64,000 nt of DNA from NCBI GenBank assembly GCA_947311445.1, contig CAMZKV010000042.1:2982-66981 (forward strand), given 5' to 3'. The position numbers and the translations under genes are program-made. This DNA comes from an uncultured Chlorobiota bacterium (GTDB taxonomy: Bacteria; Bacteroidota; Bacteroidia; Bacteroidales; JAADGE01). Shown one piece after another: positions 376-48,525 of this stretch (positions are counted from its first letter, which is position 1; the number at the start of each line of letters is the position of its first letter). The notes beneath the pieces were generated by a model that was given only the letters and a program-made list of their open reading frames with translations, ran no database searches and had not been told where the DNA came from.

Positions 376-903
376 CTAAAACTCAAATGAATCAAAAAAA
401 GTTTTAATCTTTCTATTTCTTTCTTTTTCATTGCTTATAACAATTAATTGAAACTGTACTTTATTAATTATAAAAACACGATAAAAAACATACATATTTT
501 TATCATCAAGAGATAAAAAAGCTTCTGTTCCTTTTATTTTATTGTATTTTATCTTTTTACTATTTTGAATTGTTCCTTTTATTCCTGTTTCAAAAGATTG
601 CAAAGAAGCATTCATATATGTCTCATTATCAGAAGATACAACAGGGTTTGAATGTTCAGTATATTTTAACATGTAAACGTCAGTTCCCAACAAAGCTGTA
701 TATAATTCTGTTTTAAGACCTTTATTATCGGAACTTTCTTCCATTTTATATTCAGCAGGAAAATTTATTGAGAAACTTGGCTTTTCTTTTGTTAATTTAA
801 AACTTGTTTTCTTTGTGCTTACATTAGTGTTTTGAGCACTTAAACTAAAACTAAGAAGTATGGAAACTAGTAATATCAAATTTATTTTTAATTGTTTTTT
901 CAT
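376..903 (-). CDS. hypothetical secreted protein
   Basis: 175-aa ORF with an N-terminal signal peptide (MKKQLKINLILLVSILLSFSLSAQ). No family recognised. The start codon is embedded in the end of a repeat module (901-1015). Confidence 0.55.
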   Translation of the reverse strand: MKKQLKINLILLVSILLSFSLSAQNTNVSTKKTSFKLTKEKPSFSINFPAEYKMEESSDNKGLKTELYTALLGTDVYMLKYTEHSNPVVSSDNETYMNASLQSFETGIKGTIQNSKKIKYNKIKGTEAFLSLDDKNMYVFYRVFIINKVQFQLIVISNEKERNRKIKTFFDSFEF

Positions 904-1015
904 CTGTCTAAAAAAAAGTTAAAAGTTTGAAAGTATAAAGTTAATTTGTTTTTATTAAAAATTTCTAAGAAAATATCATTTTATTAATTCCCTTCCATTG
1001 TGTGTCAAAATTTTT
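901..1015 (-). repeat. start-codon-abutting repeat, S-type module
   Basis: The reverse complement reads AAATTTTGACACACAATGG...TTTTTAATAAAAACAAATTAACTTTATACTTTCAAACTTTTAACTTTTTTTTAGACAGATG and ends on the ATG of the 376..903 gene. Confidence 0.65.
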
Positions 1016-1061
1016 ATTCATCATTTCTTATTTTCATATACAAATATACTATTTTTTATTT

Positions 1062-2312
1062 CTATTCATAATATCCTAAAATAAACTTTCTTAGCATATC
1101 TAGCGATTTTGAACTTGCAAATCTCACATTCAGTAGTCTTCGTTTTCCAAAAGTATATTTCTTGGAAATTACTTTATTCTTTCCGGCAATAGCAATCCAA
1201 GTTGTTCCAACAGGTTTTTCCATTGTTCCACCACCAGGTCCGGCAATTCCGGATATTGCAATAGAATAGTCAGTATTAAAAATATCTCTTTGTCCTTTTG
1301 CCATAGCTTCAACAACTTCTTTGCTTACAGCTCCGTATTTCTCAAGAATATTTTGTGAAACTTTAAGCTGTTTATTTTTAATTTCGTTTGAATATGCTAC
1401 AACTCCTCCTTTAAAATAGTTAGAACTTCCGGGAACAGATGCTATTAATCTTGAAACATTTCCTGCTGTACAACTTTCTGATATTGAAAGTGTTGCCTCG
1501 TTTTCAATTAATAATTCCCCTATTATGTTCTCTAAAAACTTATCTCCATATCCGAAAATATATTTTCCAATAATACTTTTTAATTTTTCAATCTCAAAAT
1601 TAATAATTTCTTCTGCTTTTTTCTTTTGCTCACAAATCATGCTCAATCTCAATCGTATTCTTTCAGGAGAAGGAAGATATGCTAATTTTATTTTATCATT
1701 AAGGTTTTGTTCCCAATCCGACAACTTTTCTGCTAAAAATGCTTCGGGAATACCATAAGTCAAAACTGTTTTATGAATTATATTTGGCAATTTCATATCT
1801 TTTTTAAGCTCAGGAATTACTTTTCTCTCAACTAATTCTTTCATTTCAAAAGGAACAGCAGGCAAAGAAACAATTATAGTTTCATCTTTTTCAAACCACA
1901 TTCCGGGTGCTGTACCATTTTTATTTCTTAAAATTTTACAATTTATGGGAACTTCTGCTTGTTTTCTGTTTCTTTCGTTATTTAGTTTAAAACCTTTTGA
2001 TTGGATAAAGTTTGTAACATCTTCTAAAACTTCTTTATTTTCTTTAAGCTCAGAATTAAAATATTCTGCAAGAACTTGTTTTGTAATATCATCCTCTGTT
2101 GGGCCTAATCCTCCGGTTATTACTATTAAGTTAACTTCATTAATTATTGAATCTAAAACACTAATTATCTGTTCTTTATCATCGCCAACGGTTATTATTC
2201 TTCGAATTTCAAAGCCAATATTATTTATTTGCTCTGCAATCCACTGAGAATTTGTATCAGTTATTTGACCTATTAAAATTTCATCTCCAATAGTTATTAT
2301 ATCTGCTTTCAT
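1062..2312 (-). CDS. cinA: CinA family protein (competence/damage-inducible; nicotinamide-nucleotide amidohydrolase-type C-terminal domain)
   Basis: 416-aa ORF. N-terminal MoCF-like motif MKADIITIGDEILIGQITDTNS and C-terminal PncC-like region (ISESCTAGN...ISGIAGPGGG). Confidence 0.9.
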   Translation of the reverse strand: MKADIITIGDEILIGQITDTNSQWIAEQINNIGFEIRRIITVGDDKEQIISVLDSIINEVNLIVITGGLGPTEDDITKQVLAEYFNSELKENKEVLEDVTNFIQSKGFKLNNERNRKQAEVPINCKILRNKNGTAPGMWFEKDETIIVSLPAVPFEMKELVERKVIPELKKDMKLPNIIHKTVLTYGIPEAFLAEKLSDWEQNLNDKIKLAYLPSPERIRLRLSMICEQKKKAEEIINFEIEKLKSIIGKYIFGYGDKFLENIIGELLIENEATLSISESCTAGNVSRLIASVPGSSNYFKGGVVAYSNEIKNKQLKVSQNILEKYGAVSKEVVEAMAKGQRDIFNTDYSIAISGIAGPGGGTMEKPVGTTWIAIAGKNKVISKKYTFGKRRLLNVRFASSKSLDMLRKFILGYYE

Positions 2313-2412
2313 GAGTCTAAAAAAGTTTAAAAGTATAAAGAGTTAATTTGTATTTATTAAAGATGCACGGTAAAAACTATTTTTTAGACATGCATTGAAT
2401 GTCAAAATCTTT
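2310..2412 (-). repeat. start-codon-abutting repeat, S-type module
   Basis: The reverse complement reads GATTTTGACATTCAATGCATGTCTAAAAAATAGTTTTTACCGTGCATCTTTAATAAATACAAATTAACTC...ACTTTTTTAGACTCATG and ends on the cinA ATG. Within it, 2341-2375 matches 37245-37279 at 34 of 35 nt. Confidence 0.75.
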
Positions 2413-2533
2413 GCTATAAGAGTTTCATATATGTTGTGATTCATTTTTATAAAAAACCGAACAAAATTGCCCGGTTTTTTTATAATCATATGTTTTTTTT
2501 TATAATAATTGTATATTATTCTAATTAAAAATT

Positions 2534-7321: not shown

Positions 7322-8185
7322 ATGAGACAATTAAAAATATCCAAATCCATAACCAACCGAGATAGTGCTTCATTAGACAAATACTTACAAGATATTGGCA
7401 AGGTAGATTTAATCTCTGTTGAAAAAGAAGTAGAACTTGCCCAAAGAATTAGAAAGGGAGACCAAGATGCTCTAAGGCAACTTACTGAAGCAAATCTTAG
7501 GTTTGTAGTTTCTGTTGCAAAGCAATACCAACACCAAGGTTTAAGTTTACCTGATTTAATTAATGAAGGAAACTTAGGTTTAATGAAAGCTGCCAAGAAA
7601 TTTGACGAAACAAGAGGTTTTAAATTTATTTCTTATGCTGTATGGTGGATAAGACAATCTATTTTACAGGCTCTTGCAGAACAGTCTAGAATTGTAAGAC
7701 TTCCTCTAAATCAAGTTGGTTCTGTGAATAAAATATATCGTTTTTTTTCTGAGTTTCAGCAAAAGTATAACAGAGAACCTACAACACAAGAAATTTCTGA
7801 GGAATTAGACATTACTACTAAAAAGATATTTCAGGTTCTTAAAGCTGCAGGAAAACATATGTCTATGGATGCACCTCTTACAACAGATTCTGACAGTAAT
7901 AGCCTAATTGATATAATGGAAAACGAAGGGACTGATCCTTCTGACAATTATTTAATTAGAGAATCTTTGCTACAAGAAATTGAACGTGCTTTATCAACTT
8001 TACCTGAGAGAGAGGCTTTAATTATTAAACATTTTTTTGGTGTGAATGATAAGGAGTTGTCATTACGAGAGATTGGGGATAAACTTGGTCTTACCAGAGA
8101 ACGAGTAAGACAATTAAAAGAACGTGCTTTAAGAAAGCTTAGAAAAAACTCACGAAATAAACATTTAAAAACTTTTTTGGGTTAG
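7322..8185 (+). CDS. rpoD: RNA polymerase primary sigma factor (sigma-70 family, Bacteroidota short form)
   Basis: 287-aa ORF with regions 2-4: DLINEGNLGLMKAAKKFD, YAVWWIRQSI, and LGLTRERVRQLKERALRKLR. Confidence 0.92.
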   Translation: MRQLKISKSITNRDSASLDKYLQDIGKVDLISVEKEVELAQRIRKGDQDALRQLTEANLRFVVSVAKQYQHQGLSLPDLINEGNLGLMKAAKKFDETRGFKFISYAVWWIRQSILQALAEQSRIVRLPLNQVGSVNKIYRFFSEFQQKYNREPTTQEISEELDITTKKIFQVLKAAGKHMSMDAPLTTDSDSNSLIDIMENEGTDPSDNYLIRESLLQEIERALSTLPEREALIIKHFFGVNDKELSLREIGDKLGLTRERVRQLKERALRKLRKNSRNKHLKTFLG

Positions 8186-14924: not shown

Positions 14925-15887
14925 TTAATCTTCGTATTTTAGTGTAATTTTTGTTCCGAAAGATTTATCGGTTAGTTTAGTTGCTTCGGTAATTACACTT
15001 TTTTTGCCTCCGTTTTCAACAAAATTTAAACATGCTCTTATTTTAGGAGCCATATTTCCTTCTCCAAATTTTCCTTCTTTCATATATTTTTCAGCATCAA
15101 TTTTATTTAAGAAATCTAATTTTTGTTCGTTATGTTGCCTGTAATTTATATAGACATAAGGGACATCTGTTAAAATGTAATATTCGTCTGCATTAATTTT
15201 TGATGCTAAAACTGCCGTTGCTTTGTCTTTATCAATAACTGCTTCTAATGGTCTTATGCTATTGTTTTCTTCATCAATATAGACAGGTATTCCGCCACCA
15301 CCCGATGCAATAACAATTGCTCCGCTTTTTGTAATACTTTCAATAGTTTTTATATTAAAAATATCAAAAGGTTCGGGAGATGCAACTACCCTCCTCCATG
15401 CATCATCAGCTTTTGGACTTTTTTTAAACTTCCATCCTTTTTCTTTTTCTAGTTTATCTGCTTCTATTTTTGGGTAAATTTTCCCAACACGTTTAGTTGG
15501 ATTTGAAAACGCAGGGTCATTTTTTTTAACGAGTGTTTGAGTAACTAATGTAACAACATCTTTTTTTATTCCTTCTTCTCTTAAAATATTCCTTAGGCTT
15601 CTTTCTATCATATATCCAATTCCTCCTTGCGAATCTGCTACGCATATGTCCAAAGGCATTTGTGGTATATCATACATTTCGGCACCGGCATCATTTCTCA
15701 TAAGAATATTCCCTACTTGTGGTCCGTTTCCATGGCTTAAAATTATATCGTGTCCTTCTTTAATGAAAGGTATAATATTTTTAAGAGTATCTGCTGTATT
15801 TTGTTCTTGTTCTTCAATTGTACCAATTTGGTCTCCTCTAAGAAGTGCATTTCCTCCGAGTGCTATAACTATTTTTTTCTTTTGCAT
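14925..15887 (-). CDS. arcC: carbamate kinase
   Basis: 320-aa ORF. IVIALGGNALL N-terminus, SHGNGPQVG and ASGGGGIPV motifs of the amino-acid kinase / carbamate kinase family. Confidence 0.88.
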   Translation of the reverse strand: MQKKKIVIALGGNALLRGDQIGTIEEQEQNTADTLKNIIPFIKEGHDIILSHGNGPQVGNILMRNDAGAEMYDIPQMPLDICVADSQGGIGYMIERSLRNILREEGIKKDVVTLVTQTLVKKNDPAFSNPTKRVGKIYPKIEADKLEKEKGWKFKKSPKADDAWRRVVASPEPFDIFNIKTIESITKSGAIVIASGGGGIPVYIDEENNSIRPLEAVIDKDKATAVLASKINADEYYILTDVPYVYINYRQHNEQKLDFLNKIDAEKYMKEGKFGEGNMAPKIRACLNFVENGGKKSVITEATKLTDKSFGTKITLKYED

Positions 15888-15924
15888 ATTTTTAAAATTT
15901 GATAATTGTATTCTATATTTTTCA

Positions 15925-16551
15925 CTAATGAGATATTTGAAATATGAAATTTTCTATTAAGCCAGGATTTAAAATTACAGGAAAAATTAATCCGAAAACT
16001 GAACCTGCAAAGTGGGCTTCGTGTGCTATATTGTCTTTGTTTCTTTTACTCATATATATTGTGTATGCCAAATAAAGCAAACCAAAGATATATGCTGGTA
16101 ATCTAATTGGAATAAAAATTATGCCGAGAGGTAAAGTTGGAGCTAATAATATTGTAGTGAAAACAACTGCTGAAACTGCTCCCGATGCTCCTACGGAATT
16201 ATAATAATGATTATTTTTATGTTTAATTATTGAGGGAATTGTTGCAATAGGAATTGCTAATACATACATTAGCATATATAAAATACTGCCAAATTTATAT
16301 GTATGCGGAAAAAAATCAGGAGATGAAAAAGCTGGTTCTATCATTTCTCCAAACATCCAAAGAACATACATATTAAAAATAAGGTGCATCCAGCCACTAT
16401 GGATGAAGGCATGAGATAATACTCTTGAATATTCATTTTTATGATATACTAAATATGCATTAAATTTTAGTTTATTAAAAAACTCTAAATTATTGAATGC
16501 AATAATTGAAACAATTGATGTTAATACTACTAATGTTAGGGTTAAATACAT
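15925..16551 (-). CDS. rhomboid family intramembrane serine protease
   Basis: 208-aa polytopic ORF. HAFIHSGWMHLIFNM, catalytic-Ser motif GASGAVSAV and His motif AHFAGSVFG. Confidence 0.85.
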   Translation of the reverse strand: MYLTLTLVVLTSIVSIIAFNNLEFFNKLKFNAYLVYHKNEYSRVLSHAFIHSGWMHLIFNMYVLWMFGEMIEPAFSSPDFFPHTYKFGSILYMLMYVLAIPIATIPSIIKHKNNHYYNSVGASGAVSAVVFTTILLAPTLPLGIIFIPIRLPAYIFGLLYLAYTIYMSKRNKDNIAHEAHFAGSVFGLIFPVILNPGLIENFIFQISH

Positions 16552-16594
16552 TTTTATTACTTTATTTTAATTGGTTTGCAAAAGTAATATATTT

Positions 16595-17593
16595 TTAATG
16601 TAAAATCTTAAAAACAAGTTCTTTTAACAAATCTCCATTTGTTGTACTTACATTATTATAACCTTTTGATTTCATATCGTATTCTCTTAATAAAGAAATT
16701 ATTGAAACTGTTTTTCGGATATTATATTTTCCTCCCGCTATTACATAATCTTTAACAAAAAAAGGATGAACTCCTAGAACTGAGGCGATATTATTTTGGC
16801 TTTTATCTTTTGTATAGTGGTAAGTAAGAATTTTTGAGAAATAGTTAAACAGACTGATAATTACCATAACCATAGGATTTGCCTTTGGGTTATTTGCAAA
16901 ATGATTAATTATTTTGTTTGCTTTTAAAACATCTTTTTGCCCGAGAGCGTTTTGAAGCTCAAAAACATTATAATCCTTACTAATCCCTATATTTTTTTCT
17001 ATATGTTCGGGAGTAATTGTAGTATTTTCAGGCAATGAAATTATTAATTTATCCAGCTCGTTTGAAATTTTGTTTAAATCTGTTCCTAAAAAGTCTGTCA
17101 GAAGTTTGCTTGAAACAGGGCGAATTGAATATTTTTTACTTTTAAGATATGCCGTAATCCAACTTTCAACTTGATTTTCATAAAGTTTTTTTGACTCAAA
17201 AATTACTGCTGTTTTTTTTAGAGCTTTATAAACTTTTTTTCTTTTATCGAAGTTCCTATTTTTAAAATTAATTACGAGGATTGTAGAATTCAGTGGTTTT
17301 TCAGCATAAAATTGAAGTTTTTCAATTTGTTTAAGGTTTTGTGCCTCTTTTACGATTAATACTTGATGATTTGCCATCATTGGAAAGCGTTTGGCAGCGT
17401 TTATTACATCTTCAATTTTGGAGTCTTTACCGTACATAACAGTTTGGTTGAATGCTTTTTCTTCTTCATTAAGAACATTTTCTGAAATATAATCGGTAAT
17501 TTTGTCAATAAAATATGACTCTTCTCCGTATAGGAAGTATATTGGTTTGTATATCTTGTTTTTTAATTCTTTTATTATTTCTTCAAACTTCAT
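16595..17593 (-). CDS. holA: DNA polymerase III subunit delta
   Basis: HolA-like N-terminus MKFEEIIKELKNKIYKPIYFLYGEESYFID. I chose the internal Met at 17593, because the first 13 codons of the ORF-track model look like read-through of the intergenic region. Confidence 0.8.
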   Translation of the reverse strand: MKFEEIIKELKNKIYKPIYFLYGEESYFIDKITDYISENVLNEEEKAFNQTVMYGKDSKIEDVINAAKRFPMMANHQVLIVKEAQNLKQIEKLQFYAEKPLNSTILVINFKNRNFDKRKKVYKALKKTAVIFESKKLYENQVESWITAYLKSKKYSIRPVSSKLLTDFLGTDLNKISNELDKLIISLPENTTITPEHIEKNIGISKDYNVFELQNALGQKDVLKANKIINHFANNPKANPMVMVIISLFNYFSKILTYHYTKDKSQNNIASVLGVHPFFVKDYVIAGGKYNIRKTVSIISLLREYDMKSKGYNNVSTTNGDLLKELVFKILH

Positions 17594-27721: not shown

Positions 27722-28327
27722 TTATTGAATAGATTTTAATGTTTTAACAATTTCTCTAACAGGCATCCTACGAGTATAATCTTTGTTAAAATATCCGTTA
27801 ATAATTTTTTTGTCTGTCCCAATAATATATGTTGCTGGTACAGGTAATGCGTTATCAGAATTTTTACTTGATTTTTTTAAATTTATACCTCTAAGTTTAT
27901 AAAAGAAATGAGCAAATCCGGAAACATGCCAAGTTACTTTATAATTATCCATTATTTTATGCCCTTCATCATAAACAATACTAAAATTTGCATTTGTTTT
28001 TTTAATAGTTTCATCAATGTAATAACTACTTTCTGGTGTTATTGCAATTATTTTTGCTCCTAAATCAGTAATCATAGACAAGGAATCAGAAAGATCATTC
28101 ATGTATAAATTGCAATGCTTACACCATTCACCTCTATAAAAAATAAGTACAACCGGCTGTTTATTAAGGATTTGATATAAATCAATTTTTTTATTATAAT
28201 TATCTTTAACAGAAAAATTATGAACTTTTGTTCCATTTTCAAGTTTTTGTTGTGCATTTATTGATAACGAAAAAATAATAATTAAAAAAAATGCTGTAAA
28301 TTTAATAATTTTCATTGAATATCTCAT
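27722..28327 (-). CDS. thioredoxin-fold thiol-disulfide oxidoreductase / peroxiredoxin-like protein (secreted)
   Basis: 201-aa ORF. Signal peptide and redox motif YRGEWCKHCNLY (CxxC). An alternative start is MKIIKF at 28315. The 28327 ATG is the last triplet of a repeat module. Confidence 0.72.
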   Translation of the reverse strand: MRYSMKIIKFTAFFLIIIFSLSINAQQKLENGTKVHNFSVKDNYNKKIDLYQILNKQPVVLIFYRGEWCKHCNLYMNDLSDSLSMITDLGAKIIAITPESSYYIDETIKKTNANFSIVYDEGHKIMDNYKVTWHVSGFAHFFYKLRGINLKKSSKNSDNALPVPATYIIGTDKKIINGYFNKDYTRRMPVREIVKTLKSIQ

Positions 28328-28560
28328 GTGTCTGATGTTTGTTAATTAATTGGCAATAAACAAGTTACTAATGTTTCTATTGTTATTAATATTTGTGTTT
28401 CTCTGCATATAGGAACACTTGCTATGTTCTGCAAATAAAATGTAGCTTTGTTATGTCATTTCAATGAATGTCAAAATCTATGTCTTTAGTGCTTAGCTTT
28501 GCAGAGACTCTGGGTTCATGTGTCAAAAAAAAGTTAAAAATTATTTTGATTCAATTAAAA
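28325..28560 (-). repeat. start-codon-abutting repeat: L-type module (28325-28480) plus linker and S-type 3' fragment (28517-28560)
   Basis: The reverse complement reads ...TTTTTTTTGACACATG|AACCCAGAGTCTCTGCAAAGC...ATTTTGACATTCATTG...TTGCAGAACATAGCAAGTGTTCCTATATGC...CAGACACATG(gene). It is homologous along its length to 29001-29150 and 37032-37170. Confidence 0.75.
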
Positions 28561-28700
28561 GGACATGAAAGAATTTGGCATCTTTTTTAGTTAGTATTTA
28601 GTTCATTCGAGAGAAAATACTTGAATATCAAATTATTAAAAATGCTTACTATATTTCATTAATTTAAAACTATGCAGTTTTATTATTTGCCATAAAAAGG

Positions 28701-28757
28701 AATCATTGCCTGGCTTCTGAGGAACTCTAAAAACTCAGAAGCCATATGGCAATGATT
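28701..28757. other. long two-tier hairpin in ORF-free intergenic DNA (terminator-like in both directions; possible sRNA 3' end)
   Basis: Outer stem AATCATTGCC (28701-28710) / GGCAATGATT (28748-28757). Inner stem GGCTTCTGAG (28712-28721) / CTCAGAAGCC (28734-28743). 12-nt loop, T-rich tracts on both sides. Confidence 0.6.
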
Positions 28758-29000
28758 ATTTTGTTACTAATTTGTTAATTAATATAAATTCTAAAAAATA
28801 TTTATTAAAAATTAATAATGTCTTTGCAAATATAAAATGTTTTAAAACAATGTTGTGTAACTAATATCACATTTGATTGCAAAAAAAGTAAATATTTTTG
28901 ATTCTACAAAATTATATTTATATAAATTGCACTTTTTTTAATACAAAACATTATTTTCAAACAAATATTCTCTAATGAAATAATAACAAATAAGAGCAAA

Positions 29001-29150
29001 CATTTTGACACCCAAGTGCATACTTATAATCTAGCAGATTTATTTCTTGCACAACATAGCAAGTGTTCCTATGTGCTGAACAACAGAGCTGTTTTAAATA
29101 CAAAAAGCAACTCGTTTAATATCAACTAATTAGACAATCTAAAACACATG
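29001..29150 (+). repeat. start-codon-abutting repeat, L-type module
   Basis: CATTTTGACACCCAAGTGCAT...TTGCACAACATAGCAAGTGTTCCTATGTGC...TTAGACAATCTAAAACACATG ends on the ATG of the 29148 gene. It is an inverted copy of 28325-28480. Confidence 0.75.
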
Positions 29151-30488
29151 AAAAACGGCTTCTTCGTAATTTTATTATCTCTAATATCAACTATTTTTTT
29201 TGCTCAAGAAAATGACTCTTTAAAGAAGAATAAAACTGGTTTTGGATTAGGTTTTGTTCCAATTTTTGCTTTTGATTCTGATGTTGGTTTAAAAACCGGC
29301 ATTGTTGCTAATATTTTTCATTATGGTGATGGTGAAAATTATCCAAAATATGAACATTCCTTACTTTTAAAATGGTACAGATCGACAAAAGGAAGTAGAT
29401 TAGCACAAGTTATTTATGATTCTGATAAAATTATTGAAAATGTCAGACTTACTTCTGAGTTTAGTTATATTACTGACCAAACACTTGGGTTTTATGGATT
29501 TAATGGAAGTAAATCATTTTACAATCATAATTATGAAATTCAATCAGAAAAAAATATTAATTATATTTCAAAAATTTATTATAAGCATCAAAGAAAAATG
29601 CTTCGATTTAAAACTGATTTTCAATCTCCATTCAAAAAAACTAAGTTTAAATGGTTAATTGGATTTTCGCATTATAATATTATGATTCAAAGTGTTGACA
29701 GGGATAAAATAAACAATCATAAATCAACTAAAGTTTTATTGCCTGACACAGCAACGTTATATGATAAATATGTTAAATGGGGAATTATAAAAAACTCTGA
29801 AAAGAACGGAGGAAAAATAAATTATCTAAAATCCGGAATAATTTACGACAGCAGAGATAATGAAAGTAATTGTAATTCAGGTATTTGGACAGAAGTCTTA
29901 CTTTTATATGCACCTTCATTTTTAGCAAACAAATCTAATTTCGGGAAACTATTATTAACTCATCGCCAATATTTCTCTTTAAGACTAAACAAACTTACTT
30001 TTGCATATAGATTAAGTTATCAAACAAAACTATGGGGAGAAATTCCTTATTATATGTTGCCTTTTTTCATTGATTCAAAAAAAACAGAAGATGGTTTAGG
30101 TGGTGCTAAAAACTTAAGAGGCATTTTAAGAAACAGAATAGTTAGTAACGGATTTGCAAATGGAACTACGGAATTAAGGTGGAAATTTTGGTCGTTAAAA
30201 TTTATAAAACAAGATTTTTATCTTTCATTAAATTGTTTTACTGATGTGGCTACTGTAACAGAAGAGTATAGGTTTAATACTGATTTAGTGAAATCTGACT
30301 TTGGATTCTCAGAAGAGTCTAATTTAAAAAGCATAAATTACTCTAACAATAAATTCCATTTTTCATATGGTGTTGGAGTTTACATAGTAATGAACAAAAA
30401 CTTTGTAATTTCAACTGATTATGGAAGAGCTGTTTCTTATCAAGATGGAAAATCAGGATTATATGTAGGTCTTAATTTTATATTTTAA
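29148..30488 (+). CDS. Omp85/BamA-family outer-membrane beta-barrel protein without recognisable POTRA domains
   Basis: 446-aa ORF. Signal peptide, barrel-like strands from residue about 30 (GFGLGFVPIFAFDSDVGLKTG), a loop-6-like GGAKNLRGI motif, and C-terminal YVGLNFIF. Confidence 0.6.
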   Translation: MKNGFFVILLSLISTIFFAQENDSLKKNKTGFGLGFVPIFAFDSDVGLKTGIVANIFHYGDGENYPKYEHSLLLKWYRSTKGSRLAQVIYDSDKIIENVRLTSEFSYITDQTLGFYGFNGSKSFYNHNYEIQSEKNINYISKIYYKHQRKMLRFKTDFQSPFKKTKFKWLIGFSHYNIMIQSVDRDKINNHKSTKVLLPDTATLYDKYVKWGIIKNSEKNGGKINYLKSGIIYDSRDNESNCNSGIWTEVLLLYAPSFLANKSNFGKLLLTHRQYFSLRLNKLTFAYRLSYQTKLWGEIPYYMLPFFIDSKKTEDGLGGAKNLRGILRNRIVSNGFANGTTELRWKFWSLKFIKQDFYLSLNCFTDVATVTEEYRFNTDLVKSDFGFSEESNLKSINYSNNKFHFSYGVGVYIVMNKNFVISTDYGRAVSYQDGKSGLYVGLNFIF

Positions 30489-31139: not shown

Positions 31140-33290
31140 TTAATTTAAAATAATAACTTTTTTTACTATATCTTTAATACTAACGAAATAAATTCCACTC
31201 GGCAACCCTTCAATATTAATTTTTTCAATATTTAGTTTACTATTTAATTGCTTATTCATTATTATTTTACCTTGTATATTTTTCAATTCTAAATTGATTT
31301 TATCCATGTTAATAAAACTATATGAAATAATAAGTGTTTTTTTAGTAGGATTTAGCAAAATTTTAAAATCTCCCTTGTTTTTACCTAAATCGTATATTCC
31401 TAATGGAGGATATGAATTATTTAACTCTGCAGGAATTCCCCATTTCATAAGAATACCACCTTCATCCCAACTAGAACCTTTTTCTTCATAAAGATATCCA
31501 TAAACTTTCAAAGTCAAATCAGTTTGATAAGTATCATCAGCAGTATAATCAAAAACAAAATCATGGATTGGTTCAATTACGGAAGAATTTGCAGGTATTG
31601 GATTTCCATTATTGTATGCTGCTGTATCATAAACAAAACCATCTGCACCGCTCACATTATCCCATATATTTATAAAACTTTCTTCTGTGGTTAATTTACC
31701 ATAAACATCATATAATATTTCTTCACTTTTGTTATTAAACTTCAAAACAAATTCAATAGTTTCATTTGGTTCTAAGATTTGATTTCCATTTCCCTGGCTA
31801 TCTGGAATATCGTCATCATCCACAGTTAAAAAAGGATACTTCTTTAAAATCGGGATAATAAAATCTCCTAACCAAAAATCTCCGTCAATATCAGGAGATA
31901 TTCCATATAATGAAAATTTAAATTGCCCGTTTCCAGGAATATAATCTGGTAGTTCTATTTCAAAACTTTGATTAGACCAAACTGTTTCAGAAATTGGAAT
32001 ATCATTGAAAGAAACAGAGTTTGAAATAATAGAAACATCTTCATTTTCACTTAAAATATTAGCACTCAGAGAAGTAATATTAAAATTCATTAAATTTTCA
32101 ATACTAATTTTTAAATTAATCTTATTTCCTTCTGTTATAATATTTTCAGGATTATCCGAAGGAGGAGTTACACCTTCATAAAATTCAAACCGAGCTAAAT
32201 TTGCAGGTTTTTCCCTTATCTCAAAATTATTTATAGCAAATACAGCTGCATCTTTTAAACTTGTAACCTTTATTAAACACTCAGTTGAAACATTGTCTGG
32301 AACAATCCATAATACACTCTCAGTACAAGATGGGACACTATCTATTATACTTGTCCAGTTTGCACCATTATCACTTGAAAATTCAATCTTTGCATCTGCA
32401 ATAAAATCGCTTTCCCATTGCATCTTAATTTCTCTTCCTTTTTCAACTTTTTGTCCATTTGAAGGATATAAAATATTTAAACTAGGAATACTTTCAACTA
32501 TACTTATTGTTAAATCAATATCAGTCAGAGGTTTATCATTGCTATTTGTTTCAACTTCACTTATTTCATAAACAACATCCATTCCATCTATAACTCTTCC
32601 AAAAACTGAATGCACATCATTTAACCATTCTGTTGGAGCAACAGTTATAAAATACTGAGATCCATTAGTATTAGGTCCTGAATTTGCCATTGAAAGAATT
32701 CCTGGTATATTATGTCTTAAATCCGGATGAAATTCATCATAAAAAGAATAGCCAGGTCCTCCTGTTCCTGTTCCATACGGACATCCGTCTTGAATCATAA
32801 ACCCGGAAATTACTCTATGAAATATTAAATCAGTATAAAAACCTTTTTCTGCTAAATTAATAAAATTCTGAGTAGTAACAGGTGCTAAATCTCCTCTTAA
32901 TTCAACTCTTACTTGTCCCAAACTTGTATTCCACTCAGCAATAAATATGTTCTGATTTGTAATCTCAAAAACAGAATTACTTTCATCAAAAACACCACCT
33001 CCCAATTCGCTTACACGTATCAAACAATTAGTAGATTCAACATTGGGTGTTGTCCAAGAATAAAAATTTTCTGTGCAATTGTTAACAATTTCAACCCAAT
33101 TAGTTCCATTATCTACTGAATATTCTATTTTAAAATTTGAAATACCTGTACTTTCCCATATAATATTATGTGGAGACCATGTATCCTTTATAAATTTTTC
33201 ATTTCCATTAGGAAAAATCAAATTAATTGTTTGTGAATTAGAATATTTAATAAATACAATCAGGCTTAAAAAAATTATTATATTTTTCAT
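31140..33290 (-). CDS. secreted cyclophilin-type peptidyl-prolyl cis-trans isomerase with T9SS C-terminal sorting domain
   Basis: 716-aa ORF. Cyclophilin core (FHRVISGFMIQDGCPYGTGTGGPGYSFYDEF...SMANSGPNTNGSQYFIT), flanking duplicated about 90-aa domains, and a Por-type tail (GIYFVSIKDIVKKVIILN). Confidence 0.85.
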   Translation of the reverse strand: MKNIIIFLSLIVFIKYSNSQTINLIFPNGNEKFIKDTWSPHNIIWESTGISNFKIEYSVDNGTNWVEIVNNCTENFYSWTTPNVESTNCLIRVSELGGGVFDESNSVFEITNQNIFIAEWNTSLGQVRVELRGDLAPVTTQNFINLAEKGFYTDLIFHRVISGFMIQDGCPYGTGTGGPGYSFYDEFHPDLRHNIPGILSMANSGPNTNGSQYFITVAPTEWLNDVHSVFGRVIDGMDVVYEISEVETNSNDKPLTDIDLTISIVESIPSLNILYPSNGQKVEKGREIKMQWESDFIADAKIEFSSDNGANWTSIIDSVPSCTESVLWIVPDNVSTECLIKVTSLKDAAVFAINNFEIREKPANLARFEFYEGVTPPSDNPENIITEGNKINLKISIENLMNFNITSLSANILSENEDVSIISNSVSFNDIPISETVWSNQSFEIELPDYIPGNGQFKFSLYGISPDIDGDFWLGDFIIPILKKYPFLTVDDDDIPDSQGNGNQILEPNETIEFVLKFNNKSEEILYDVYGKLTTEESFINIWDNVSGADGFVYDTAAYNNGNPIPANSSVIEPIHDFVFDYTADDTYQTDLTLKVYGYLYEEKGSSWDEGGILMKWGIPAELNNSYPPLGIYDLGKNKGDFKILLNPTKKTLIISYSFINMDKINLELKNIQGKIIMNKQLNSKLNIEKINIEGLPSGIYFVSIKDIVKKVIILN

Positions 33291-33383
33291 GTGTCTATTT
33301 TTATTGATTTATTTTTTTTCGTTAGAGAAACTCATACATTAGGATTTGTTAATATCTTTTAAAAAGATAAAGATAAAACTTTT

Positions 33384-36902: not shown

Positions 36903-37004
36903 AAGATAAAAGTTAAGAATTGTTAAAAAATAAACATCAAAAGTAATAAATATTTGCTTTCAGTTTTTAATTTTGTCTATTTATTTAATAAAATATATGA
37001 AACA

Positions 37005-37300
37005 CCCTCAAAAAATACTCAGACACACATGAACAAAATTATAAACCTGCATATTGATTACTTGCAATAGAAAGCAAGTGTTCCTAAGTGCAAGACAACA
37101 CAATTATTTTAAGTCTCAATATTATTGAAACTTATTATATATCAATCAATTAAGCAAACACAGACTCATTAACCCGAAGGCTCAGCAAATATTAAACACC
37201 TATGAAAAAGACTTTTACACCCAAGTACATGACTAAAAATTAGATTTTACCGTGCATCTCTAATAAATACAAATTAACTTTTAACTTTTTTAAACACATG
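37005..37300 (+). repeat. three chained modules of the start-codon-abutting repeat family (5' fragment, L-type, S-type)
   Basis: ATGAAACACC...CAGACACACATG (to 37031) | AAC...CTTGCAATAGAAAGCAAGTGTTCCTAAGTGCAAG...CAGACTCATT (to 37170) | AACCCGAAGGCTCAGC...CTTTTACACCCAAGTACATGAC...TTTTACCGTGCATCTCTAATAAATACAAATTAACT...TAAACACATG (gene ATG at 37298). Confidence 0.75.
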
Positions 37301-41500: not shown

Positions 41501-44488
41501 ATGGCTAAGACTATTAAAGGTAAGAGACTATTTCAAATTGCAAAAGAGCTTAATGTTGGAAAAGAACATCTGATAGAACATCTTCAAAATAACAATATTG
41601 AAGCTGAAAACAGACCAAATGCAAAAATTTCTGCAGAAGGCTATGAATTGCTATTGAAAAAATTTAGTTCTGACAAATTAGTAAAAGAAGAATCAGAAAA
41701 ACTAAGAAAAGAAAGAGAAGAAAGTATTATAAAAGATACTGAAACTGAGACTGTTCTTTCAGAAGTAAAAGAACAAACAGAAGAAGTTAATAATACTATT
41801 GAAGAAACTAGCGAAGAAAAAATTCTAGAGGAGACCATAGAAGAAATAGTACCAAAAGAAACTAAAGAAGAAAAAGTTCCCGAGAAAACTAAAGATGAAA
41901 AAATTCCAGAAGAAGTTAAAGAAGAAATAATTATTGATTCGATAAAAAAGGAAGAAATTACTGAAGACTCTATGAAAGAGAGCGGTGATATAAATACTAA
42001 TGATGATTTAAAAAAAGAAAAAAATAAAAGTGAAAAAGATTTACCTGAAAAAGAAGAAGCTACTAAATCTGATAAACCAGAACAAAAAGTCAATACTTTA
42101 AAAGTTAAAGGTAAAATAGATTTGAATGCAATAAATCAAAAAACAAAACCTGATAAAAAAACGGCAAAACAAAGAAAAGAAGAACGCCATAAAAGAAGAA
42201 TTGCAAAAATTGAATCAGAAGAACTTGCCAAATTAAATAAACAAAAAAATGCTGAGCAAGAAGAAAAACTTAGACTTGCAAAAATAGAATCCAACAAAGA
42301 ATTAGAAGCAAAAAAGAAAAAAGAAGAAGCTGAAAAGAATTTTATAAAAACAAAATTTCAAAAATTAACAGGCCCAAAAGTTCTTGGGAAAATTGTTGTT
42401 GAAGAAAAAAAGAAAAAAGGCTCTAAAAAAACAACTCCCGGTGCAAAAAAAGCAGGAGTTGAAAACAGAAGAACAAAACGAAGAAAAAGAATAAGAAAAC
42501 CTATAAACACAAATACAACTGCAACTGCTAACAAAGGCAAAAAAACTTTCGACAAAAAGAAAAGATACAAAAAGAAAGAAGAAGTAAGCCAAGAAGATGT
42601 TCAAAAACAAGTTAGAGATACACTAGCAAAACTAACAAATAAATCTAAAAAAACTTCTGTAAAACACAGACGAAAAAAAAGAGACGAAGCTCAACAACAA
42701 ATTCAAGAAGATATTCAATTACAAGAAAAGGAAAAATCAATCCTTAAGTTAACTGAATTTATTTCTGCAAACGAATTAGCTAAATTTATGGATGTTTCTG
42801 TAAATAAGGTAATTGCCACAAGTTTTGAATTAGGAAAAATGGTTACAATTAATTCGAGACTAGATGCCGAAGTAATTGGAATTATTGCCGAAGAATATGG
42901 ATTTGAGGTAGAATTTGTTTCAGCTACCGAAGGTGTTGAAATTGACGACTATGAAGATAAAGAAGAAGATTTAAAACCAAGACCACCAATTGTAACAGTT
43001 ATGGGACATGTTGATCATGGAAAAACTTCTTTACTTGATTTTATTAGAGACGAAAATGTTATAGCAGGTGAAGCCGGAGGTATAACTCAACATATTGGTG
43101 CTTACAATGTTAAAATGAAGGATGGTAAAAGAATTACCTTTCTTGACACTCCCGGACATGAAGCTTTTACAGCAATGCGTGCCAGAGGTGCTAAGGTAAC
43201 TGATATTGTAATAATTATTATTGCTGCTGATGACAAAAAAATTATGCCGCAAACAGAAGAAGCCATTAACCACGCTAAAGCTGCAGAAGTACCAATAATT
43301 TTTGCTATAAACAAAATTGATAAACCCGGAGCAGATCCTGAAAGAATTAAAAAAGAACTTGCAGAAAAAAATCTACTTATTGAAGCATGGGGAGGAAAAT
43401 ATCAATCTGTTGATATTTCTGCTAAACACGGAACAAATGTTGATGCACTAATGGATGAAGTTGTTTTAGCCGCTGAAATGTTAGAGTTAACTGCAAATCC
43501 TGACAGACCTGCAAAAGGAACAATTATTGAATCTGAACTTGATAAAGGTAGAGGATACATTTCTACTATTTTAGTACAAACAGGAACTTTAAAAATTGGA
43601 GATATTGTCCTTGCAGGAGCACATTCAGGCAAAATTAAAGCAATGTTTGACGAAAGAGGTAATAAAGTAAAAGAAGCTGGCCCATCAATTCCTGTTCAAC
43701 TGCTGGGTTTAAACGGTGCTCCGCAAGCAGGAGACATTTTCTATGTTCTAAATTCAGAAAAAGAAGCAAGAGAAATTGCTGACAAAAATAAACGATTACA
43801 AAGAGAGCAAACTCTTAGAACTCATAAACATATAACTCTTGATGAAATTGGAAGAAGACTTCAATTAGGTAACTTCCAAGAAATAAATATTATTATTAAA
43901 GGTGATGTTATTGGTTCTGTTGAAGCTGTTGCTGACTCACTAATTAAACTTGGGAATGACGAAGTTCAAATAAAAGTTATACATAAAGGTGTTGGACAAA
44001 TCTCAGAAGCTGATGTTATGTTAGCTTCCGCTTCCGATGCAATAATTGTTGGTTTCCAAGTAAGACCTTCTCTTAAAGCCAAAAAACTTGCCGAAAAAGA
44101 AGAAATTGACATTAGACTATATTCAATTATTTATGAAGCAATTGAAGAAATGAAAGATGCAATGGAAGGAATGCTTTCTCCAATTATAAAAGAAGAAATT
44201 ACTGCTACTGTTGAAATTAGAAATGTATTTAAAGTTTCTAAATCTGGTAAAGTTGCAGGTTGTTTTGTTCTTGACGGAAAAATTAGTAGAGATAATAAAA
44301 TAAGAATTATTAGAGAAGGAATTGTTAAATACCAAGGAGAACTTGGTTCTTTAAGAAGATTTAAAGATGATGTTAAAGAAGTTGTTTCGGGAATGGAATG
44401 TGGTTTAAATGTTGAAAACTATAATGATATTAAAGTTGGAGACATTATTGAATCATTTAGAGAAACTGAAACAAAAAGAAAACTATAA
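41501..44488 (+). CDS. infB: translation initiation factor IF-2
   Basis: 995-aa ORF. E/K-rich N-terminal region and G domain ([28 protein letters not shown]). Confidence 0.97.
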
Positions 44489-44536: not shown

Positions 44537-44602
44537 AAAAAAATTATTATAAAAACAAACCTAACTTACTCAATATAAACTAATTAAATAATTCTTATAC
44601 AC

Positions 44603-45256
44603 ATGAACAATATTTATCTACAAAAGAATAAAATTCTTAATATTTTTCAAAAAAGTGATTTGAAACAATTCAAAATATCTGATTTTGAAAACGAATTAAA
44701 CTTTAAGATTATTTCATTTGAAAATGAAATCGAATTACTTCAAATAATTGATAAGATTTTCGTTGAACATAATTTAGAAGTTATTATAAAAATTAATAAT
44801 GTAAAATTACTTTCAGGAATTGCAGAAAGAATTGGGTTTCCAGAATATAATAAAGAACTAATCTCTACATTATATAAATTAAATAAAATAGGACTAGACA
44901 ACTTCAAAGAAGAACTTATGAGAATAGGCTTTTCAGAAGATTCTGTAAATTTAACAGAAACAATCCTAAATCTTAACGGAACATATAACAACCAAATGCA
45001 ATGTATTGAAAAATTTCTTGGTGAAACAGATTCAGGGATTGATGGAATTGTTGAAATTGAGAAACTTTTCTCTTTTCCTAAAATTAAGCAATTCAAAAAT
45101 GAAATTCAACTTGATATAACTTTATCTACTAACGAAAATAGTTTTTCTGGTACAATTTTTAAAATTGCACTTAAAGAAAACCAAAATAATATCTTATGCA
45201 AAGGTGGTACTAGTAAAGATTTTTTTAAAATATATTTTAAAACTAATGAAGTATAA
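44603..45256 (+). CDS. histidyl-tRNA synthetase-derived protein lacking catalytic motifs and the anticodon-binding domain
   Basis: 217-aa intact ORF. It aligns by eye with the middle of class II HisRS (IKINNVKLLSGIAERIGFPE, LYKLNKIGLDNFKEEL). The HisRS motifs RGLDYYTG and GGRYD are replaced by TNENSFSG and GGTSKD. Confidence 0.55.
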   Translation: MNNIYLQKNKILNIFQKSDLKQFKISDFENELNFKIISFENEIELLQIIDKIFVEHNLEVIIKINNVKLLSGIAERIGFPEYNKELISTLYKLNKIGLDNFKEELMRIGFSEDSVNLTETILNLNGTYNNQMQCIEKFLGETDSGIDGIVEIEKLFSFPKIKQFKNEIQLDITLSTNENSFSGTIFKIALKENQNNILCKGGTSKDFFKIYFKTNEV

Positions 45257-48371: not shown

Positions 48372-48525
48372 ATGAAACACCAAAGACAAAAGTTTCAGCA
48401 CACAAAGGAATGACTAAAATGTGTATTTCCTATGCATTTTTAATAAATGCAAATTGACTTTTAACTTCACACTTTCAAACTTTTAACTTTTAACTTTAAA
48501 ACTTTTAACTATTATTAGACACATG
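48372..48525 (+). repeat. start-codon-abutting repeat, S-type variant with CTTTTAAC micro-repeats
   Basis: ATGAAACACCAAAGAC...GTTTCAGCACACAAAGGAATGAC...TATGCATTTTTAATAAATGCAAATTGACTTTTAAC...(ACTTTTAAC repeated)...ATTAGACACATG ends on the ATG of the 48523 gene. Confidence 0.65.

Follow-up and report, generated by a model that had tools for sequence, protein, structure and literature searches.

Lineage-specific, non-coding cassettes of 130-250 nt lie between the promoter and the ATG of unrelated genes in one uncultured, AT-rich lineage of Bacteroidota. We analyzed them in a stretch of 64,000 nucleotides from an uncultured bacterium of the Bacteroidales (assembly GCA_947311445.1, contig CAMZKV010000042.1, positions 2,982 to 66,981), hereafter the window, which contains eight modules of the family (six full, one truncated and one partial) and one solo tail. 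The reading that we prefer, to which we give a probability of roughly 0.6, is that the family is a lineage-specific, non-autonomous and co-transcribed insertion element of the 5' untranslated region (UTR) that targets ATGA starts and regenerates the ATG. It is the comparison with relatives that decides the interpretation.

Anatomy of the repeat family

An earlier note on this DNA had described modular repeats that end on the start codons of unrelated genes, and the family was reproduced here by a repeat search, by blastn and by nhmmer. The repeat search recovered pairs of both body types, S with S and L with L (I1, I2, I3, I4, D3 and D13). Pair I1 joins 2325-2392 to 37228-37295 over 68 nt at 87% identity, and the 34 matches in 35 nt that had been counted between 2341-2375 and 37245-37279 are exact. 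In an all-against-all blastn of the intergenic regions, the leaders of cinA and of a glycosyltransferase gene matched over 113 nt (80%, E=8e-25), with further matches of 160 nt (67%, E=3e-16), 98 nt (72%, E=1e-13) and 82 nt (74%, E=1e-11). The nhmmer profiles made from the copies gave 79-129 bits on each member.

The alignment of 16 copies from four genomes divides a module into head, body and tail. The head, of about 55 nt with the consensus (ATGA)AACACC-N10-ATTTTGACACCCAAGGGCATGACTATAA, is common to three body types that are mutually unrelated in sequence. The S body consists of TTTTACCGTGCATCT.TAATAAATACAAATTAAC and a heptamer array, (ACTTTTA)n; the L body consists of CTTGC-N8-GCAAGTGTTCCTATGTGCAGAACA, a core also written GCAAGTGTTCCTATGTGC, and an AT-rich stretch without such an array; and a third, hairpin-containing type was seen in L009 (contigs used for comparison are labeled L001 to L023). 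Three window copies share the 13-nt L core without a difference, their flanks being about 70% identical. The tail ends in (T)AGACAC and is directly followed by ATGA(A). The sense strand of the modules contains 42% A, 16% C, 11% G and 31% T, the C content being twice that of other upstream regions, and the copies are distributed four and four over the two DNA strands, with no replication-strand bias seen. The copies and the elements belonging to them are as follows, a slash marking the boundary between module and start codon or next module.

904-1037, minus strand: S-type module upstream of the gene for a 175-aa secreted protein (nhmmer S profile 1036-901, E=4.7e-24; blastn), running from ATGAAAAT at 1037-1035 to the tail TTTTAGACAG, which adjoins the start codon at 903-901.
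1041-1048, minus strand: canonical Bacteroidetes -7 box TATATTTG, 3 nt upstream of the 5' ATG of this module and kept in all six sequences (window, L007, L009, L012, L015 and L016).
2313-2444, minus strand: S-type module upstream of cinA (E=3.9e-28; repeat pair I1; blastn), with head ATGAATCAC...TTTTGACATTCAATGCATGTC, body TTTTACCGTGCATCTTTAATAAATACAAATTAAC, heptamer tail and the end TTTTAGACTC adjoining the start codon at 2312-2310.
28328-28519, minus strand: L-type module upstream of an AhpC/TSA-family gene (E=2.9e-33), with the core TTGC-N8-GCAAGTGTTCCTATATGC and the tail CAGACAC/ATG at 28327; its L013 ortholog is 75% identical.
28520-28600, minus strand: 5'-truncated S-type fragment chained upstream of the AhpC L module (blastn), with the end TTTTTTGACAC/ATGAACCC and a length difference of 21 nt (3 x 7) from L013.
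28975-29147, plus strand: L-type module upstream of an Omp85-family gene (E=1.1e-36), with the tail AAACAC/ATG at 29148.
36968-36975, plus strand: canonical -7 box TAATTTTG, 21 nt upstream of the glycosyltransferase module chain, in a promoter region 98% identical to L013.
36997-37167, plus strand: L-type module, unit 1 of the two-module chain before the glycosyltransferase gene (E=9.2e-34), starting with ATGAAACACCC and ending in GACTC and then ATT, a decayed ATG.
37168-37297, plus strand: S-type module, unit 2 of this chain (E=2.1e-23), with the tail TTTTAAACAC/ATG at 37298 and 87% identity to the cinA copy across 68 nt.
48372-48522, plus strand: S-type module upstream of a MORN-caspase gene (E=1e-29), from ATGAAACACC to the tail TTAGACAC/ATG at 48523.
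48457-48514, plus strand: heptamer array (ACTTTTA) x 8 in the S-type tail of that module, found with Tandem Repeats Finder (period 7, 8 copies); shorter arrays lie at 915-942, 2321-2344 and 37274-37289.
44539-44602, plus strand: weak partial L-type tail at the start of a HisRS-like gene (blastn, 65 nt, 74%), ending in TTATACAC/ATG.
33291-33300, minus strand: solo tail AATAGACAC/ATG at the start of a gene for a cyclophilin with a sorting domain of the type IX secretion system (T9SS), possibly a scar.

The last two correspond to shorter traces listed earlier at 33290 and 44603, which were weakly borne out: the former consists of a tail only, and the L-tail profile matches 44539-44605 marginally (E=0.86).

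The head-to-tail chaining that had been noticed in the window was found there and in L007. The chain junction is intact at L007 9826-9840 (GACAC/ATGAAACACC(C)) and decayed at window positions 28517-28524 (GACAC/ATGAACCC) and 37163-37172 (GACTC/ATTAACCC). Degeneration is greater in the upstream unit of every chain, which is 5'-truncated or has its ATG mutated to ATT or AAG.

The 5' ATGAAA of the modules opens mini-ORFs (open reading frames) of 2-13 codons. A conserved leader peptide was rejected, as peptide and length vary and the ATG is lost in the L013 ortholog of the glycosyltransferase leader (ATAAAA).

It is barely credible that the family arose from chance similarity among low-complexity AT-rich leaders or from an assembly artefact. 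At a GC content of 27.8% short A/T-rich matches are indeed plentiful, and many spurious repeat families were returned; however, the E-values of the family reach 1e-25 to 1e-38 and the GC-containing cores are exact. The window is also base-identical to L001 and L018, independently assembled Logan contigs of run ERR4221282, which excludes an assembly artefact, and orthologous copies occur in other assemblies.

The same genes with and without a cassette

Orthologous loci were obtained via protein homologs of CinA, the Omp85-family protein and RluD and the contigs that encode them. Comparison with insert-free relatives, the check that the earlier note had named, places the insertion boundary exactly at the ATG (L009 against L016, cinA, and the MORN-caspase gene). 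Between L009 and L016 there is a clean 144-nt indel, base-exact at the ATG of the gene for a 179-aa protein, with conserved flanks on both sides: the filled site of L009 reads ...AAAAATATT/ATGAAACACCC...AAGACAC/ATGAAAAAA, and the empty site of L016 reads ...AAAAATATT/ATGAATAAT. Behind the conserved TATATTTG box, this 175/179-aa gene carries an S module in the window, an L module in L007, the third type in L009 and nothing in L016.

L007 (GCA_054023215.1) is a close relative, with coding DNA 94-96% identical to that of the window strain. Behind a conserved terminator that is the same in both, the cinA leader contains two chained L modules in L007 and a single S module in the window, and the cinA leaders of L009, L012, L015 and L016 (CinA 75-81% identical) are module-free and 70 nt long. 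For these two adjacent genes, the bodies of the window and L007 are unalignable (S against L), and the promoter and terminator flanks are conserved. Upstream of htrA, L007 carries 253 nt (a truncated L module and an L variant) exactly at the ATG, where the window strain has none. The MORN-caspase module of the window faces an empty site in L019 and L023, and L022, an 80% relative, has a solo tail, TTTAAGACAC/ATGAAAAAA, at the start of this gene (7993-8010, minus strand). Taken together, the family is present in the window clade and L009 and absent from L012, L014-L017, L019 and L023. These comparisons bear out the mobile or exchangeable nature of the cassette that had been likened to the miniature inverted-repeat transposable elements (MITEs), with filled against empty sites and S-for-L swaps; the terminal inverted repeats (TIRs) that went with this likeness proved not to be general.

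Exchange without transposition would be another history. On this account, which we consider decidedly unlikely, homologous recombination or gene conversion between paralogous leaders, with head and tail as arms, acted together with heptamer slippage and nothing else. The S-for-L swaps do retain head-proximal and tail-proximal sequence, array indels are multiples of 7, and the direct repeat formed by the head unit TTTTGACAC with the tail TTTTAGACAC could delete the body and leave a solo tail; the solo tails in L022 and L001 may be scars of such recombination. However, there are naive sites without head or tail homology whose orthologs carry complete, base-exact modules at the ATG, for example L016 (..AAAAATATT/ATGAAT), cinA of four relatives and the MORN-caspase gene of L019. 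Recombination would leave the first acquisition and the strict sense orientation unexplained.

The wider distribution was approached by pattern scans. The strict L core TTGCA-N7-AGCAAGTGTTCCTA gave only chance coding matches in GTDB representative genomes (L003) and JGI metagenomes (L004-L006), the S-body pattern gave no match in JGI metagenomes, and of two pattern scans of IMG/VR one returned two chance matches and the other nothing. The L pattern was too strict, L007 copies reading TGCAAGTG or ACAAGTGC, and the scans thus say little about the true distribution.

Some of the contigs used here differ in other ways. In L012 (1992-2178), the leader of the 177-aa ortholog contains three GC-rich hairpins instead (AAACCGTTAAAACGGTTT, AACCCACGACTTAAGTCGTGGGTT and AACCATTTTAATGGTT), and this lineage may have a repeat of another, REP-like type in that leader. 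Between its htrA and guanylate kinase genes, L007 has a 78-aa ORF and a gene with a Fic domain (15052-16628) that L001 lacks, and it is without the 1120-aa Sortilin/T9SS gene found in L001; gene content thus turns over locally between genomes about 5% apart.

Exactness at the start codon

The sequence AGACACATGA, with at most one mismatch, occurs 10 times in the window against 3.25 expected, a count reached in 0 of 100 shuffles; eight of these are at the start codons of ORFs, and the other two are where modules join. The context xACAC/ATG is found in only 8 of 57 window genes, the remaining 49 having A-rich leaders. All nhmmer hits in the window, L001 and L007-L023 (about 250 kb) adjoin a start codon or the next module. 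That the repeat-encoded ATG is the true start, as had been proposed, is upheld by CinA, HtrA and the 175/179-aa proteins, which have the same first residues in relatives with or without a module; the module-terminal ATGs are therefore genuine starts.

Of the non-coding ATGA sites in the window, 29 coincide with start codons and 51 do not. If ATGA were the sole requirement, nine or more independent insertion sites, every one at a start and in sense orientation, would have p ~1e-4; therefore, either targeting demands more than a tetranucleotide or selection acts against other insertions between genes. Every insert is flanked on both sides by ATGA(A), with a shared junction of 4-7 nt that overlaps the commonest gene start, ATGAAA. 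The junctions fit insertion 3' of ATGA by an ATGA-ending element and, equally, a 4-nt duplication. With ATGA(A) at the 5' junction and again leading into the ORF, the reading frame and the N-terminus are unchanged, which is compatible with the suggestion that the element donates the start codon.

The terminal AGACAC is conserved even though, by having C at -1 and -3, it differs from the other 49 genes, whose context is A-rich; this is expected of an element end and not of an optimized initiation site. A preference for ATGAAA(A), the usual Met-Lys-Lys start of signal peptides, would alone enrich secreted and envelope hosts, as observed. Flank transduction, considered for the 14-mer ATGAAAATAAGAAA shared by the 5' edge of the 175-aa leader and the htrA start, was dropped, with about 0.6 chance matches expected by a rough estimate, in view of its low complexity.

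Drift, folding and promoters of the modules

A neutral reference is provided by L013 (like L012, from GCA_947311255.1), which is syntenic with the window over 19.5-41.5 kb and 85.8% identical at 4-fold degenerate sites. Between the window and L013, the orthologous modules show identities of 75, 82, 84, 90 and 91.5% and indels of 21-50 nt, three of the five segments having 21-41 gap columns. Outside the modules, these intergenic regions reach 94.6% and 97.9% identity. Compared with the 4-fold sites, these values indicate that the bodies drift approximately neutrally and that the neighboring promoters are strongly constrained. A 29-nt deletion removes the conserved L core upstream of the L013 Omp85 gene, and the heptamer-array indels between the two are multiples of 7.

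No conserved RNA structure was found beyond one short hairpin. RNAalifold on ten L copies yields only a 5-bp CUUGC-N8-GCAAG hairpin of -1.7 kcal/mol, single-sequence folds of modules have z-scores of -1.6 to +1.5, no better than shuffles, and Rfam gives nothing at gathering thresholds across the window, with three sub-threshold matches only at E<=1 in 28300-29200. The inverted copies near cinA (2310-2324 and 2380-2392) are exactly as had been described. The 83-bp TIR-bounded unit built on them was taken for an S-type trait and is not one: the inverted tail copy is significant in the cinA module (0/300 shuffles), and the 12 other modules are like shuffles. A stem sequestering the start codon, or a TIR, was accordingly rejected as a family feature.

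These observations make it highly improbable that the cassettes are a cis-regulatory RNA, that is, a riboswitch, thermometer or attenuator in which the head CAUGUCUAAAAAA pairs with the tail UUUUUUAGACUCAUG and sequesters the start codon. The inverted repeat of the cinA copy, which includes the AUG, speaks for such a device; however, the pairing is missing in 12 of 13 modules, no compensatory support exists beyond the one short hairpin, the downstream genes are unrelated, and no Rfam family matches.

The earlier note had also offered the cassette as a mobile promoter, which the sequence contradicts. No TAnnTTTG box was found in 11 module arrays (about 2.3 kb), and canonical -7 boxes lie 1-76 nt upstream of four arrays. 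An internal promoter was rejected, since TAnnTTTG is lacking and TTGACA-N14-TAWAAT in the head is wrongly spaced and poorly conserved. No ECF-like (extracytoplasmic function) GGAAC...GTCTAA in the right order was seen in the modules by eye. The modules have no Shine-Dalgarno sequence, as expected for Bacteroidota. With neither fold nor promoter, the modules are best seen as unstructured inserts in the transcribed leader.

The same evidence bears on the proposal of a strongly conserved regulatory leader, which in its fullest form would resemble the REP2/CREN repeats of Neisseria: the head and the invariant L core GTGTTCCTATGTGC would bind an alternative sigma factor, a transcription factor or an RNA-binding protein, and the cassettes, co-regulating envelope and stress genes, would be kept by selection and spread by recombination. 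We hold this to be unlikely. It would account for a head that is conserved over all body types and contains TTGACA-N14-TAWAAT, for the identity of the L core between diverged flanks, and for hosts rich in envelope and stress genes (Omp85, HtrA, AhpC, the cyclophilin-T9SS protein, the secreted MORN-caspase and CinA), and Neisseria REP2, which lies upstream of genes that are co-regulated, is a precedent for it (PMC3184786). It does not sit well with modules that drift at about the synonymous rate beside promoter DNA that is 95-98% conserved, with the loss of the L core in the L013 Omp85 ortholog and the absence of conserved RNA structure, or with one gene bearing S, L, the third type or nothing among close relatives. 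Only about 5 of 13 copies contain the head's TTTG, the 14-nt spacer fits no known promoter, TAnnTTTG is lacking, and a target of ATGAAA(A) would by itself lead one to expect the envelope bias.

An insertion element that would rebuild the start codon

For the insertion element that we prefer, the comparisons show the following course. A unit integrates precisely at the start codon, behind the promoter that the gene already has, and only in sense orientation. Units stack head to tail, the upstream one having decayed further, and are also lost by deletion, possibly with solo GACAC/ATG tails left behind. Loci exchange bodies, and the sequence of the bodies drifts neutrally. The element would presumably be transcribed within the mRNA leader and would spread via a site-specific mechanism recognizing ATGA(A). 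A single-strand transposase of the HUH/Y1 type is one candidate mover, and a small site-specific recombinase with a circular GACAC-ATGA-AACACC junction as its substrate is another; either would be encoded elsewhere in the genome and supplied in trans. The two ends are the conserved parts, as expected for sequences recognized by mobilization machinery. We suppose that the element is tolerated because the start codon is rebuilt and the initiation region is unstructured, A/C-rich and G-poor; moreover, the tail contains stops in both other frames (TAG...ATGA), so that any mini-ORF opened by the 5' ATGAAA would end at the real start. Going further, we tentatively suggest an undescribed class of mobile element that homes to start codons, ends in ...GACAC-ATGA, integrates at ATGA(A) in sense orientation and rebuilds the start, making its insertion near-silent in phenotype, with successive insertions piling up as arrays within the 5' UTR; we think this somewhat less probable than its opposite.

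Several points weigh against the insertion element. No transposase, integrase or reverse transcriptase was found among the 40 window proteins by Pfam, nor was an autonomous partner element found in the window. TIRs are absent, and the shared junction of 4-7 nt shows no clear fixed-length target duplication; since ATGAAA is the commonest gene start anyway, the flanking ATGA(A) is ambiguous. The copies within the genome are only 70-87% identical, and no recent burst is therefore visible. The 'empty' htrA site, TTTTATTGAC/ATG (L001 6370-6391), may have arisen by deletion, as a scar, instead of being naive. Envelope or secreted proteins are the products of many downstream genes, and this could indicate regulation. 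The survey of modules comprises about 250 kb of fragments, and the transcription of the modules and the use of the module ATG are read from sequence.

Other features of the window and its relatives

The window is a chromosomal segment of a Bacteroidota with ordinary housekeeping genes (IF-2, NusA, DnaJ/GrpE, sigma-70 and CinA). Most of its genes have a TAnnTTTG -7 box about 20-40 nt upstream, T9SS C-terminal sorting domains are encoded among its proteins (Pfam), and no tRNA genes or Rfam families were found across it. The cyclophilin with a T9SS sorting domain (716 aa, 31140-33290), whose start bears the solo GACAC/ATG, is absent from the otherwise syntenic L013, in which the Crp-like gene is directly followed by the radical-SAM gene; the two close relatives differ here by an indel of a whole gene.

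Midway between the divergent AhpC and Omp85 genes, 28700-28757 forms a very stable hairpin of about 21 bp (fold z-scores of -5.6 on the plus strand and -5.5 on the minus strand). The hairpin is part of 370 nt that L013 shares at 95% identity, and no Rfam family matches it above threshold; its role could be that of a small RNA, of a terminator working in both directions or of a palindrome bound by a protein. A 27-nt tandem repeat at 41801-41932 (4.9 copies, 72% matches), in the part of the IF-2 gene for the N-terminal region, encodes a Glu/Lys-rich repeat and is ordinary for this part of IF-2. Four diverged 86-nt repeats at 48589-49676, within a gene for a 796-aa protein, are the MORN repeats of the secreted MORN-caspase (Peptidase_C14), a domain pairing unusual for a bacterium.

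The assembly GCA_947311255.1 holds both the L013 contig, whose proteins are 92-99% identical to those of the window, and the cinA contig L012, which is only 75% identical and has the gene order of the L009/L016 clade; it looks like a mixed bin or a metagenome-level assembly.

Relation to known elements

Start-codon homing, if true, would mean that prokaryotic mobile DNA follows a new logic in its target sites, with targeting tied to the sequence of the start codon or to the promoter-proximal transcription bubble. It would also mean a natural rewriting of 5' UTRs, and hence of translation initiation, in Shine-Dalgarno-independent Bacteroidota, with the coding sequence untouched. Whatever their origin, the cassettes will mislead the annotation of start codons and promoters in such metagenome-assembled genomes.

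Strict membership of the MITEs, of the palindrome-associated transposable elements (PATEs) or of the riboswitches fails for the cassettes in at least one tested defining feature each. The cassettes share with MITEs the presence/absence polymorphism at orthologous sites, small size, non-coding nature and multiple copies; unlike bacterial MITEs, they have no TIRs and no clear fixed-length duplication such as TA, and are strictly in sense orientation and base-exact at the ATG. Like Correia/NEMIS, BOX (A-B-C), ERIC and RUP, they are short, non-coding, non-autonomous, dispersed and presumably co-transcribed with their neighbors, and BOX is modular too. We know of no such start-codon precision in Correia, BOX or ERIC.

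The PATEs and HUH elements derived from IS200/IS605 resemble the cassettes in their asymmetric ends without TIRs. They insert strand-specifically beside a fixed target of 4-5 nt, with no true duplication, and an ATGA-ending HUH-type element inserting 3' of ATGA would yield exactly the observed junctions, which a 4-nt duplication would fit equally. Unlike PATEs, the cassettes have no subterminal hairpins, no TnpA or TnpB nearby and no replication-strand bias, and a tetranucleotide target of the PATE type cannot alone explain their restriction to start codons. The conserved structure and the related downstream functions that define a riboswitch class are not found in the cassettes.

Direct repeats of the heptamer TAACTGA beside start codons have been described in Beggiatoaceae, Cyanobacteria and a few Bacteroidetes (MacGregor 2015, PMC4679880). 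As in the S-type tail, these are sense tandem units of 7 nt, a few bases from the starts of unrelated genes lacking a ribosome-binding site, and strains differ in 7-nt increments. However, the S-type unit is ACTTTTA (or TAACTTT) and not TAACTGA, its array is one part of a larger cassette, and L-type modules have no array.

The closest known kind is that of Neisseria REP2/CREN and the IR-A/IR-B elements of Borrelia plasmids, which are repeats fused to start codons (Parkhill 2000; Morelle 2003; review Delihas 2011, PMC3184786) and whose origin and proliferation are unexplained (PMC3184786). The claim that the family is not a described element therefore holds in that it is absent from Rfam, and gives way in that the kind is known. 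Like the cassettes, REP2 and IR are dispersed repeats of 120-150 bp without TIRs, upstream of unrelated genes, which provide 5'-UTR sequence and are fused to the ATG. REP2 has its own promoter, a Shine-Dalgarno sequence and two conserved stem-loops, whereas the cassettes have none of these and only one 5-bp hairpin, in the L type. REP2 belongs to another phylum; no Rfam match was obtained here, and REP2 is set apart by its description. Unlike REP2, the cassettes have alternative bodies, chain head to tail and come with filled and empty sites that are exact to the base and have ATGA on either side.

To our knowledge, 25 years have passed since start-codon-fused repeats became known (Neisseria REP2 and Borrelia IR among them), and their spread is unexplained. 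What is new in comparison with them is the base-precise filled and empty orthologous sites, the stacked arrays and the body swaps in genomes about 5% apart, all of which point to integration at the ATG itself. If true, start-codon homing could explain the proliferation of REP2-like start-codon-fused repeats as well.

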